From the IMG/VR virus record IMGVR_UViG_3300021256_000002, positions 160,001 through 224,000 of that record: DNA of 64,000 nt; one strand, given 5' to 3'. The translations under genes were made by a program, and so were the position numbers. Source of the DNA: a virus (taxonomy: Duplodnaviria; Caudoviricetes). Positions 20,977 to 60,221 of this stretch are shown here, in pieces (the first letter of the stretch is position 1; every line of letters begins with the position of its first letter). The notes under the pieces were generated by a model, which saw nothing but the letters and a program-made list of their open reading frames with translations, did no database searches and was not told where the DNA came from.

Positions 20977-21019
20977 AATTTTCCTCCTATTAATTTCTAA
21001 TACTAGATAACAATAATGT

Positions 21020-21172
21020 AATCCATCTAGATGAAATGACTGTAGTCTAGCTGGAAGAATTTAGAGAGAAGCCTAGTGTTTCTTCTCGGAATTCTGCGCG
21101 TGGTGCAATGGCCGCACCACGCGTGTTGTTTGCCCTTTGCATACCAGATTCACCTCCTTTCATACTCTAAGA
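21020..21172 (+). ncRNA. candidate structured antisense RNA to the tubulin-operon leader
   Basis: AACA-ATAATG-TA late promoter at 21009-21020; hairpin GCGCGTGGTGC/GCACCACGCGT; closing ATGAAA/TTTCAT; G-U pairs favour the plus strand. Confidence 0.35.
21047..21142 (-). CDS. putative 31-aa leader peptide (MQRANNTRGAAIAPRAEFREETLGFSLNSSS)
   Basis: AAAGGAGGTG RBS directly after the early promoter at 21171-21188; not in the ORF track. Confidence 0.4.
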   Translation of the reverse strand: MQRANNTRGAAIAPRAEFREETLGFSLNSSS

Positions 21173-21227
21173 TAATATATATTTGAAATCAATATTGAGA
21201 TTTTCTATTATCCGTGACAAAATCCTA
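21171..21227. promoter_or_regulatory. back-to-back early (minus) and late (plus) promoters
   Basis: TTTCAAATATATATTATC on minus 21171-21188; GACA-AAATCC-TA on plus 21216-21227. Confidence 0.65.
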
Positions 21228-56114: not shown

Positions 56115-57443
56115 TCATGTGTCTGGATTGAGTTTCTTTTCGTAGCTATTCTCGAGGTCGTTGATACGATTAATTAGAGTCATGATGTAAAGATTGTTAA
56201 CGTATATAATGATTCTATACGTTGAGTTATACTCTTTATTATAGATATTAATCTTCTGGTTATCAAGGTCTATTTCATAGTCGTATTTCTGATCTTTAGC
56301 GAATTTGCTTCCTTTAAGAATACCCTTCAATAAGGTACTGTTTTTCATGATATAGAAATTGAAAAGCATTGCATTTGATATCCCATGTTTCTTATGATAA
56401 TCCAGAATATCCTTAAGAGCGGAGTCTTTAAAGATACCAGATATATCAAGTACATCAGGTTTATCCTTAGGAATATCTTTACTCAGCATAAAGATATTGG
56501 AATAGAAGAGAATGTATCCATCATGGTCAGTTTCTCTAAATATCTGCTGAGGGGTATAGAACGGGATTATCTTTGTTGCTTGGTTAGTATCCATCAGAAG
56601 AGCAGTATTTGCTTTCTGGACAACATCATCTCGCTCAGTTGTAAGAGCGTACATACCCATGGTATTAAATTCACTTGTCATAATGAAGTTAATAACTGCT
56701 CTATCATATACATCACCATGCTTATTAGGATCATCTCTACTATAATTGGTAAAGATGTATTCCATGGCAATCGGATTGTATATAAAGAATTCTTCTTTCT
56801 GACTAGCATTCTTTTCTTTGAATGTGAAGAGTCGGTTTGAATTTGACGTAAGATAATTCAAGAACTTACGTACCAAACCAGTATCTGGGTCACGAATAGG
56901 CATACCAGATATTTCAGAAATTGCATTGATGAAAGCCATTGGTACAAGGCATTCTGTTGCAGTATGCTTCTTGTATATCTGATTTTCATTATGTAAGTTG
57001 AGAAGTTTGTTGTAGAGATTAGCCTGTTGATATTCCGTCTCTACGATAATCGAACAGGTCAATTCAACACGAATACGGTTCATGAGATACGAGAGAGTTA
57101 CGTCATTCACGTTATCCCGAAATATCTTATGAAACCATCCACCAGTTCGTTCATAATTATATCCTTCAATGTTTCGAGTAAGTCTACTCATTGACATGAA
57201 GATATCGTTATCACCCATAATCACTCGAGGTTTTACAACCAGTATAGGTTTATTCTTATGAATGAATTTATCAGATTGACGATTCTCTTCAATCATGAAT
57301 TCTCTATACGGCATCTTACTTGTGATATGGATATGCTTAAAAAAATTATCAGGGAACATTCCTTTGAGATATTCAATCATTATAAAGGTAACATTTCCTG
57401 TAGTATGAGCAATTGATGCGTTAGCCATCGCTGTATTAGGCAT
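56115..57443 (-). CDS. putative virion structural protein
   Basis: 442 aa; TACA-N6-TA at 57461-57472. Confidence 0.65.
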   Translation of the reverse strand: MPNTAMANASIAHTTGNVTFIMIEYLKGMFPDNFFKHIHITSKMPYREFMIEENRQSDKFIHKNKPILVVKPRVIMGDNDIFMSMSRLTRNIEGYNYERTGGWFHKIFRDNVNDVTLSYLMNRIRVELTCSIIVETEYQQANLYNKLLNLHNENQIYKKHTATECLVPMAFINAISEISGMPIRDPDTGLVRKFLNYLTSNSNRLFTFKEKNASQKEEFFIYNPIAMEYIFTNYSRDDPNKHGDVYDRAVINFIMTSEFNTMGMYALTTERDDVVQKANTALLMDTNQATKIIPFYTPQQIFRETDHDGYILFYSNIFMLSKDIPKDKPDVLDISGIFKDSALKDILDYHKKHGISNAMLFNFYIMKNSTLLKGILKGSKFAKDQKYDYEIDLDNQKINIYNKEYNSTYRIIIYVNNLYIMTLINRINDLENSYEKKLNPDT

Positions 57444-57493
57444 TATTATTCACCTACCTTTATTCTTCTGTATTACGAATAAAACATTAATGT

Positions 57494-57790
57494 AATGGGA
57501 TATTTCGATTTGGTTCCATTGGCGTTCAAAGTATACCTCCTTTTCAATATAGGGGGCGAAGTGGTGGAATTGCTTAACCGTTTCTAATCGGGGCGTCTTT
57601 CTTTCTACTGGTTGGATGATTTGCTCAGACCAGACAGTTTGTTAGGCTTTGTCAGTATTATAGCCCCCATTTATGTATACTATTTGCGATTTGCTTGGAA
57701 CCAATTTCCATATCCTATTCATGACTATTTCTCTTTCTAAATATAATACACAAAAGAAAGCTAGAGCGATTGTGCTCTAGCTTTCTATCC
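57494..57790 (+). ncRNA. candidate novel structured non-coding RNA
   Basis: Late promoter AACA-TTAATG-TA (57483-57494), nested long-range stems 57494-57719, terminator 57752-57786. Confidence 0.55.
57752..57786. terminator. bidirectional terminator
   Basis: AGAAAGCTAGAGC/GCTCTAGCTTTCT inverted repeat. Confidence 0.75.
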
Positions 57791-57796
57791 AACTTT

Positions 57797-60221
57797 TTAG
57801 ATAGTGCAGAAATTGTACAGGCTAATTGTTTCGTCTTTGATGAAACCGAAATCTGAATTAATTAAACCATTATTATGGTCAATCATAAAGCCTGTTCTTG
57901 GGAAGAAGACTTCCTTAAATGCACGTTTAAACTCAGTTGTAATTTCCTTGGTGATATTCAAAGTATCTCCATCAACAGTATCTTCACATAGAGTCGTTAC
58001 TTCTATGCAGTTCTCTTATGAACTTCTCCATGTCACCATGGAAGTTGAGACTATATCTTTCTTCCTATATAGGAAGTACCCCATTTCGATTTAAGGGATT
58101 CTCACCCACTCACTTGAGCCCTACTCCTGTAGCCGATTCTAACGGCACCATTTGGATAGTCGTTGAACGTTCCTATTTTCATAAGCTTCGCTGCTGATTG
58201 TCTCATTTGAGAGTTTCCAGCAATTAAAGGTTTGGTGAATCATAGATTACTCTATGAAACGACCTAATTTAAGTCAGCATTCAGAGATTGTAAACACTGA
58301 ATAGGTAAACTACAACTAAGGTCAGAATAATCATCCTTAACTGAGGCCACGTTCATAGCTAAATATGACCCCATATTGATTGTTGGATTCCGATTGAGTA
58401 AAATCGACGAGTCGAGTTTTTCATGCGTAAGGATATACTGCATGATGCTATATACCTTAGTATCAAATTCTCGATACGCATAATACCATCTCTCATATGC
58501 TTGTGAGTATGAATAACCTTCTAATTTAACCAGAAGGTTAACGATATCAGGCTTCCACAACTCACAGAACGCTACATCCTTTATATTCACATAGATTCGT
58601 TACTTCTATGCCGTTCTCTTATGAACTGCTACATGTCTCCATGTAGAGTAGACTATATCACCAACTCATATAGAGTTGCTCTCTATTTCGAGTTCACTTG
58701 AACCCTACTCCCATAAAGGGATAGTCGTTGAACATTCCTCCGTAGAGGCTTCGCTGCTGATTGTCTCATATGAGAGTTCCCAGCAATTAAGAGAGTTTTA
58801 CATATTATATCACTATAATACGCCGCTAATAACTAACGGTAAGCGTACTTCATATGAACGCAATGACGCATCCGGTACAATAACGCATCTAGCTGCATTG
58901 TTAATACGACCACCTAAAATCGATCTCCTTATACCTTACATTCACATAGAGTCGTTACTTCTATGCAGTTCTCTTATGAACTTCTGCATGTCATCATGCA
59001 GAGTAGACTATATCTTCATCCTATTCGATATGAATAGGAGGCTGCTGTTTCGATTTAAGGGGTTTTCACCCGCTCACTTGAGCCCTACTCCTGTTGACGA
59101 ATTTCACGTCCTAAGGGATAGTCGTTGAACGTTCTCTCTTACGAGAGCTTCGCTGCTGATTGTCTCGTTTTGTGATAGCTTGTATCCACGAGATTTCCCA
59201 GCAATTAAGCAACTTTTCCTATACAATTACTCGTATAGGGACCTATAAAGTTAAGCCCTTCGTTTTCATGAATAGACGTAAATACAGAATCGAATACCTG
59301 GTTAAGATTATTCTGTGCTCTAAAGAGCGTATTGTTAAGTTTTGCAATATTACTGGTTTTGATTTCATGCTCATCATTGATACGACAAACGTTACCATAT
59401 AAGGCGTTGTAACATCTATCTACTTTTCTATATGAGAATTTCTCATTAGAGAAGAATACTTCACGTAATACTGCGGAATAAACCGGAATTTTAGTTACGA
59501 AGATTTTATTCTTATTCTCCATGATGAGGTCATATTGTGCCTTGCGGTTTTTCTTCTTCCGGTAGAAGAAATCCATAATCTCATCAAATCTTTCGTGGAA
59601 TTCTATCATACCAATTCCGGCGAAAGGATTCTTGTTAAGGTCTACATCAGTCGTTCCTCCATAGAAACCATCAAGTTTCATATCTTTATCAAATCCAATG
59701 ATTTGAGACAGAATAGAGGTTTTATTTGCTTTACCAAAGAACACATCAAGTTCTTTATAGAGTAATGGTTGAATGATAGAGAATCTTGCATCGTTAATCA
59801 CTATATAAGCAAAGAGCTTGAGGTTCACATCTACGAACTCAACCTTTGTCCCGCAATCAGGGCATCTACGACCTTTGAAAATCTTACCAATCATCTTACC
59901 ACAATCGCATGAATATCTGTCGGCGAATGCGTTATCATCGAGCCAATCGGTGCCAAACAACGGAGAATGGATACCATACATTTCTTTAGTTCCTTTAGCC
60001 GATGGTTCAGAACTCTTATCGTTCTTAGGATTCTTCTTAAACGGTTTTGCTCTTACGATGAAACCGAATTTACGTTTCATATCGTTCTCAAAGTCAGCTT
60101 CCCAATCACGAATAACTGGCATAGGACCAATCGTCTCTGCATTGTACAGCTCAGGAACCAATTGCTGTGCAAGTTCGAGTTCTTTCGGCGTTAAGTTATA
60201 ATCGATACCTATATTCTTCAC
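57797..60221 (-). CDS. non-virion RNA polymerase beta' N-terminal/catalytic subunit, four exons (60221-59254, 58933-58836, 58577-58272, 57975-57797; 516 aa)
   Basis: Zn finger CDCG...CPDC; spliced junctions give GLIRRSILGGRINNAARCVIVP, LPYVAFCELWKP, LNRNPT and LNADFDGD. Confidence 0.93.
57976..58271 (-). ncRNA. group I self-splicing intron 3 (296 nt, no ORF) inside NAD|FDGD
   Basis: P1 GACU/GGUC, same core, terminal G; removal gives AAT GCT GAC T|TT GAT GGA GAT. Confidence 0.94.
58578..58835 (-). ncRNA. group I self-splicing intron 2 (258 nt, no ORF)
   Basis: P1 CCGU/GCGG, same P/Q/R/S core, terminal G; removal restores the codon T|AT. Confidence 0.92.
58934..59253 (-). ncRNA. group I self-splicing intron 1 (320 nt, no ORF)
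   Basis: P1 GGGCU/GGUCC with U-G, P AAUUGCUGG, Q AAUCAGCAG, R GUUCAACGACUA, S AAGAUAUAGUCU, terminal G, P10 CUUUAUA/UAUAAGG. Confidence 0.93.

Follow-up and report, generated by a model that had tools for sequence, protein, structure and literature searches.

Judging from its sequence, the feature described here is real and unusual. Most likely, an AR9-like jumbo phage of the gut carries a new gene for a late small RNA here, at 57483-57790 on the plus strand of the window, by which we mean the whole 64,000-nt stretch analysed (bases 160001-224000 of an IMG/VR phage genome of 253,296 bp with terminal repeats). The best explanation, to which we assign a probability of about 50%, is a stand-alone late ncRNA gene whose product would pair with ribosome sites through an exposed 12-nt box. 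A new phage ncRNA gene with a late promoter had been suggested in a preliminary description of this DNA, and the suggestion is supported by the rank of the promoter, the conservation of the unit in two further lineages, the finding of 0 polymorphic sites in 298 nt and a late transcription start mapped in AR9.

The source is an uncultured AR9-like giant (jumbo) gut phage; its virion proteins are of the phiKZ type, and its genes for multisubunit RNA polymerase are split. All genes around the locus are on the minus strand. The RNA unit sits in a gap of 353 nt (window 57444-57796) that separates the last exon of the non-virion RNA polymerase (nvRNAP) beta gene from a late gene for a 442-aa protein, and it is present in one copy in the 253-kb genome. 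Three introns of group I interrupt the polymerase beta-like gene (RF00028 matches at 58026-58280, 58629-58845 and 58984-59263). In L033, a strain about 97% identical to the window, the polymerase exons are joined directly at 57974-58270 and 58578-58840, the sites of two of these three introns, so that polymerase alleles lacking these two introns circulate. The features of the locus are as follows.

56115-57443, minus strand: 442-aa gene, phrog_21946, with no assigned function; anchor for finding relatives.
57461-57472, minus strand: probable late promoter of the 442-aa gene, TACA-N6-TA, +1 at 57461; inferred from relatives.
57473-57529, minus strand: 18-codon TTG ORF preceded by a perfect ribosome site, to which the box is complementary.
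57483-57494, plus strand: AR9-type late nvRNAP promoter, AACA-N6-TA; 16.2 bits with the position weight matrix (PWM), +1 at A57494.
57494-57719, plus strand: rod-like folded RNA domain of 226 nt; the 5' end pairs with 57710-57719.
57533-57544, plus strand: conserved 12-nt box AUACCUCCUUUU in a one-sided bulge, at +40 to +51.
57720-57751, plus strand: hypervariable linker from rod to hairpin; 17 of 33 positions (57719-57751) vary, and there are indels.
57754-57786, both strands: 13-bp hairpin; terminator of the polymerase operon (minus) and probable RNA 3' end (plus).
57797-57961, minus strand: last exon of the nvRNAP beta gene, with phrog_2987 matches on the neighbouring exons.

Late promoters of AR9 have the consensus AACA-(6N)-TA/G, the final base of which is the transcription start, and early promoters the consensus AAATATATATTAT-(6N)-G (PMC5312081). 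The early and late consensus sequences of the window genome are those of AR9. An AT-rich long box with TATATATTAT occurs in about 55 intergenic copies and is over-represented upstream of genes, as is AACA-N5-GTA, with 23 of its 45 copies in the intergenic 14% of the genome; AACA-N4-AGTA is intergenic in 17 of 23 copies. The intergenic sequence at 57483-57494 (+) has the AACA-(6N)-TA/G arrangement of an AR9-type late unit, with AACA at 57483-57486, six further bases, T57493 and A57494, and because the AR9 rule sets the start at the last base, +1 falls on 57494, where the preliminary description had also put it. With a PWM trained on 16 late sites located just upstream of genes, this position ranked 13th among about 506,000 genome positions, within the score range of the training sites themselves, and it outscored everything else in 57400-57800, on both strands, by 14 bits.

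Back to back with the RNA promoter, within 57461-57494, lies the probable late promoter of the 442-aa gene, 18-29 nt ahead of its start. Its PWM score is under 1.3 bits, below the four best listed for 57400-57800; at the corresponding position L005 and L007 have a perfect AACA-N6-TA and L032 has TACA-N6-TA. As the AACA and TACA elements of the two promoters are 10 nt apart, the RNA and the 442-aa gene may compete for polymerase.

A second good late promoter, AACAATAATGTA (14.7 bits), was seen at window 21009-21180 (+); about 145 nt downstream, its transcript would cross a minus-strand gene's early promoter and ribosome site in antisense. Outside the window, short units running from a late promoter to a hairpin without an ORF were found at genome 250822 (-), 236635 (+) and 124717 (+), the first of them with UUUUCCUCCUAU at about +31. 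These three units suggest that the phage has several late small RNAs. Three other "orphan" late-promoter matches (window 23187 and 23493, both (-), and genome 134738) were discarded as reverse complements of terminator U-tails; the U-tails of plus-strand terminators, such as those at window 23187 and 23493, are a trap for motif-based promoter calling.

For the transcript, RNAfold reproduced the nested stem series that had been described from +1 onwards, namely 57494-57503/57710-57719, UUGGUUCCA/UGGAACCAA, a 4-bp stem with G-U pairing, GUAUAC/GUAUAC and 57552-57557/57663-57668. The fold is more stable than shuffled controls, as anticipated: the rod (57494-57719 (+)) reaches -67.8 kcal/mol (z -3.55; 1 shuffle in 200 did equally well) versus -49.5 kcal/mol (z -1.89) for its complement on the minus strand, and inclusion of the hairpin (57494-57795) gives -89.7 kcal/mol (z -4.92). 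The duplex of the 5' 30 nt with downstream sequence has a z score of -3.6, matched by 2 of 500 shuffles. Both the minimum free energy and the centroid structure have a branched interior and a one-sided bulge of 10 nt, CUCCUUUUC, with a probability of being unpaired of 0.96-1.0, in agreement with the exposed anti-Shine-Dalgarno bulge of the preliminary description. For the whole 12-nt box, the mean probability of being unpaired is 0.69-0.83, compared to 0.43 for the entire RNA. Nine of the 12 box bases are identical to what we take to be the 3' tail of Firmicute 16S rRNA (the anti-Shine-Dalgarno sequence), and the box is complementary to the AAAGGAGG-type ribosome site, the commonest one in the window genome.

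A terminator had been proposed at 57752-57786. The hairpin itself was found (57754-57786), but in a simple terminator scan it passes on the minus strand only, where it ends the polymerase operon; since the plus-strand U-run is weak, the hairpin is at best bidirectional.

Selection at the locus was assessed in four strains, the window and the approximately 97% identical L030, L033 and L034. Not a single segregating site was seen in the 298 nt from 57421 to 57718, where 13.9 would be expected at the rate of the 442-aa gene (P about 1e-6) and 37 at the rate of third codon positions. By comparison, 61 sites segregate over 1306 nt of the 442-aa gene (55 are third codon positions) and 14 over 164 nt of the polymerase exon. 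Variation sets in immediately 3' of the final rod base pair, with a sharp conservation boundary at 57718/57719, and within the hairpin the strain differences are confined to the loop (57772 and 57773). The absence of any change at wobble positions disfavours a plain protein-coding explanation. The RNA gene looks genuine, and selection on it is very strong.

Relatives were found via the 442-aa protein, in metagenomes only, and their contigs were compared. Among GenBank phages, BLAST matched neither the region nor the 442-aa protein, protein and pattern scans of IMG/VR yielded no relatives (the single match, L031, is due to chance), and a pattern scan of metagenomes returned 16 matches, of which L030 alone is real. 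The comparison comprises three lineages: the window, L002-L004 (85% protein identity) and L032/L011 (81%); the RNA unit is absent from distant relatives (61% identity or less). In L002-L004 and L032/L011, the unit is likewise encoded on the strand opposite to the 442-aa gene, and these two diverged lineages retain the promoter, the first 8 nt, the 12-nt box, the long-range closing duplex and an end hairpin. In the promoter, AACA and TA are identical and five of the six spacer bases are changed, and the motif is not kept on the opposite strand at this place. The first eight transcribed bases are the same in all three lineages, and the box AUACCUCCUUUU lies at +39 to +41 in them (3/3); these are the only in-register blocks of 8-mer length or more that are common to the three RNAs.

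Past about 95 nt the three RNAs can no longer be aligned. In each lineage the 5' 30 nt form a long-range duplex (z about -3.6, equalled by at most 2 of 500 shuffles), and the box is predicted to be unpaired in all three. In every lineage the RNA strand gives a more stable fold than the complementary strand (z -4.9 versus -1.9 in the window, where the complement figure refers to the rod alone; -107.4, z -4.15, versus -87.7, z -2.91, in L032; -85.9, z -4.35, versus -66.0, z -3.55, in L002). In a G-rich helix after the box, pairing survives two-sided changes, e.g. G-C to A-U and C-G to U-A. The 3' partners of the long helix are non-homologous segments in the window and L002, and strict covariation is limited because the long-range helices use such partly non-homologous segments. 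Of the covariation that the preliminary description had looked to homologues for, compensatory changes in one helix were therefore obtained, but not covariation over the whole rod, and our claim is restricted to the lineage-wise significance of the fold and to this helix.

The end hairpin of L032 is homologous to that of the window, with one G:C to U:A swap, and passes the simple terminator scan on the opposite strand only; L002 has a different end hairpin with a U6 run on the RNA strand only, and the scan found no terminator there. Beyond the hairpin, the window has the convergent polymerase gene, whereas L002 and L032 carry unrelated genes on the RNA strand, each behind its own early promoter. 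As the genes past the hairpin differ in all three lineages, it is the RNA unit itself that is conserved. The gap is also a hotspot for inserts in relatives. Two of the distant relatives have other inserts there, namely a free-standing HNH_3 endonuclease in L009 (3152-3613) and a 28-aa hydrophobic (small membrane) peptide behind an early promoter in L014 (1020-1587); L032 (1834-2616) has a NUMOD4/HNH gene, next to which lies a weak match to a group I intron.

None of the known RNA families considered in the preliminary description, such as 6S RNA and tmRNA, matched the locus. An Rfam scan of 57200-59500 at E<=10 gave no 6S RNA and, apart from the introns, only chance-level matches to NrrF and SurA, a search for 6S RNA in L002 and L032 at E<=1 was equally negative, and no tRNA or tmRNA was found at the locus. 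A group I intron was dismissed, the RF00028 matches lying at 58026-59263 and none in 57444-57796. A multicopy inverted-repeat mobile element is at odds with the single copy in the 253-kb genome, and a retron ncRNA with the distance of 172 kb to the sole RVT_1 ORF. The latter, a 436-aa ORF (E 8e-15), is located outside the window at genome 44805-45506 (-); a late-type promoter, AACACTAATGTA, was noticed on the same strand at genome 46050.

The closest counterpart we know is found in AR9 itself. Its late start at 75478 on the minus strand, mapped by dRNA-seq and given the class "Antisense" (g090) in Table S3 of Lavysh et al. 2017 (PMC5312081), has a step height of 3757, the highest among the table rows listed. 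According to the AR9 record, this start comes directly after g089, which encodes the C-terminal part of nvRNAP beta, and the small gene g090, both on the opposite strand, and it is 51-60 nt away from the next, divergent gene g091. The AR9 RNA starts with AAUGUCCUCC, predicted to be unpaired, followed by a 21-bp hairpin shared with g090. It resembles the window RNA in promoter type, place and orientation, in the A-AUG start, in the unpaired CCUCC, and in an end hairpin shared with the convergent operon. On the other hand, it extends over only about 70 nt to the hairpin, has its box at +6 and forms no rod. Because sequence homology ends after the promoter and the first bases, and because g091 is unrelated to the 442-aa protein, we regard the AR9 RNA as a positional analogue only; by this analogy, the window RNA is most likely a larger relative in kind of this abundant, uncharacterised AR9 transcript. 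Phage vB_BpuM-BpSp has a weaker analogue, a similarly short unit that is displaced by one gene and whose motif is degenerate, and no comparable unit was found after the beta gene in Staphylococcus and Listeria relatives of AR9.

RsaE/RoxS and S. aureus RNAIII are regulatory RNAs of Firmicutes with C/U-rich seeds. Like the window RNA, they combine an exposed anti-Shine-Dalgarno pyrimidine stretch and a stable fold with a subsequent terminator hairpin. The window RNA differs from them in being phage-encoded, a predicted transcript of the phage polymerase and without an Rfam match; it is also longer, has paired ends, and exposes a single long rRNA-tail box instead of several short C-rich loops. 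Among phage RNAs, lambda OOP, P22 sas and P1/P7 c4 are cis-antisense RNAs (reviewed in PMC12197685). These and the antisense RNAs of the jumbo phage phiR1-37 are likewise short, are encoded on the opposite strand and could pair with ribosome sites. Phage cis-antisense RNAs, however, act on a defined overlapping or nearby message, whereas at our locus the complementary strand may be silent in two of the three lineages.

The gap contains no long ORF, as had been noted, but the 18-codon TTG ORF is not the sole short one: there are further ORFs of 30, 42 and 35 codons on the plus strand and of 26 codons on the minus strand. No short ORF of the locus is conserved as a protein among the three lineages. 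Plus-strand short ORFs, including a leaderless one of 30 codons at +2, were rejected as coding because their frames and ends differ and one is truncated in L030, and a type I toxin-antitoxin or other small-protein gene was rejected as well (the three lineages use different frames, L030 and L033 lack the ATG, and synonymous polymorphism is absent).

It is nevertheless conceivable that the minus strand is the functional one, providing the 442-aa gene with a structured leader in which a ribosome site and a translated uORF of 15-18 codons control late translation, perhaps together with a second small ORF bearing a [VL]YI[NK]G motif. The preliminary description gave this strand little weight. A perfect ribosome site followed after 7-9 nt by a start codon and an ORF of 15-18 codons is indeed found in all three lineages, the short peptides of L002 and L032 are identical at 10 of 15 positions, and the codons of the [VL]YI[NK]G motif differ mainly at third positions. 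Between L002 and L032, however, the reading frame is shifted and shifted back, the frame of the window peptide differs relative to the conserved DNA, and the 26-codon ORF lacks its ATG in L030 and L033. The four strains show zero third-position polymorphism here, as opposed to 55 such changes in the adjacent gene. L032 has an open frame of about 100 codons across the region, though without a canonical start. On this strand, neither gene nor promoter was found upstream in L002 and no gene upstream in L032, the 442-aa gene seems to own a late promoter shortly ahead of its start, and the minus strand folds worse than the RNA strand in all lineages. Some standing is left to a minus-strand leader by an AACA-N6-TA match upstream in L032, and we rate it as unlikely, although it is the chief competitor of the RNA-gene reading.

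Other readings accept the plus-strand transcript and give it a different role or none. Readthrough from 57494 past the weak terminator would yield an RNA complementary to the 3' message of beta, which might lower polymerase late in infection. Such feedback would suit the poor plus-strand U-run, the position of the unit next to a polymerase gene in both the window and AR9, and the listed classification of AR9 75478(-), beside the beta C-terminal gene, as antisense to g090. We consider it quite unlikely, given that the RNA of L002 and L032 precedes not polymerase but unrelated same-strand genes with early promoters of their own, and it leaves both the invariant 226-nt rod and the conserved box unexplained. 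A protein might instead be the target, if the rod presents its mimic of the 16S tail to a factor that binds or cuts this tail (a host defence nuclease, or a ribosome or phage factor). The 9-nt match takes in flanking bases beyond CCUCC, the rod is invariant at every base, beyond the needs of a simple seed-pairing RNA, and the AR9 counterpart is very abundant as far as the listed rows of its table go. The rod outside the box, though, is not conserved between lineages, which disfavours a shape-specific protein site and makes this reading very unlikely. There is an even slimmer chance that the element acts as DNA, e.g. as a divergent promoter region, a binding array or a recombination relic, with the plus-strand RNA as a by-product. 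Its inverted repeats can fold on either strand, relatives have an insert hotspot here (the L009 endonuclease and the L014 membrane peptide), and conservation ends sharply at 57718/57719; against this, the element is single-copy in the genome, G-U pairs favour one strand in all lineages, a promoter and a hairpin flank it in all three, and AR9 has, among the listed starts, an abundant RNA at the corresponding place. Finally, the preliminary description had envisaged a 6S-like decoy, i.e. an RNA that sequesters host or phage RNA polymerase by mimicking an open promoter. With 6S RNA (RF00013) the window RNA shares paired 5' and 3' ends, an elongated, rod-like outline and an internal unpaired region, and it adjoins a polymerase gene. 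The AR9 polymerase reads a single-stranded, uracil-containing template motif (according to the abstract of PMC9209446), which an RNA could imitate. However, there is no match to the 6S model at E<=10, the bulge is one-sided and the interior branched in place of a two-sided central bubble in a single rod, UGUU motifs are no commoner than expected by chance (estimated from base composition), and the conserved unpaired sequence is a copy of the rRNA tail and not of a promoter motif, so that we abandon the 6S-like identity as extremely improbable.

We thus return to the stand-alone late ncRNA with a ribosome-site-pairing box. According to this proposal, the phage nvRNAP would start at A57494 from the AR9-type promoter and produce an ncRNA of about 295 nt. 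The RNA would close on itself, its 5' end pairing about 215 nt downstream, and its 3' end would be the hairpin that also terminates the convergent polymerase operon; within the fold, the 12-nt box at +40 to +51, its copy of the 16S rRNA tail, would stay unpaired. This RNA, which on this view is abundant late in infection, would most likely use the box to pair with AAAGGAGG-type ribosome-binding sites and so reduce translation from them. The targets might be early phage or host messages, reached in trans, or minus-strand transcripts across the locus, reached in cis, or both. A role in blocking ribosome-binding sites is plausible from the conservation and exposure of the box and its complementarity to the commonest ribosome site; conserved, unpaired and complementary to the ribosome site is what the seed of an anti-Shine-Dalgarno sRNA is expected to be. 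No specific phage target stood out above generic ribosome sites, the longest box match being 11-12 nt. Predicted pairing of the box was somewhat stronger at the first genes behind early promoters than at those behind late promoters (-10.7 versus -9.1 kcal/mol, p=0.02, based on a crude gene call), which lends the mechanism weak support.

Tentatively, and with considerable doubt, the proposal may be extended to the group: AR9-like jumbo phages could share very abundant late RNAs, transcribed by the phage polymerase, that carry an rRNA-tail copy and act as a global switch of translation by soaking up strong ribosome sites of early and host messages after late genes have been turned on. If this is true, the window RNA would be an unusually large, rod-shaped member, placed like the AR9 late 5' end of greatest abundance, as far as the listed rows show.

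To our knowledge, very few regulatory RNAs have been described from strictly lytic phages, and for jumbo phages of the AR9/phiKZ type, which transcribe with machinery of their own, we know of none that has been assigned a function. The idea is testable despite the uncultured state of the source phage, since AR9 and Bacillus subtilis are tractable, and the abundant AR9 transcript published in 2017 only as "antisense" thereby gains a concrete, testable meaning. A conserved late RNA that displays the docking sequence of the ribosome would suggest that jumbo phages, in addition to running their own transcription, also act on translation by means of RNA.
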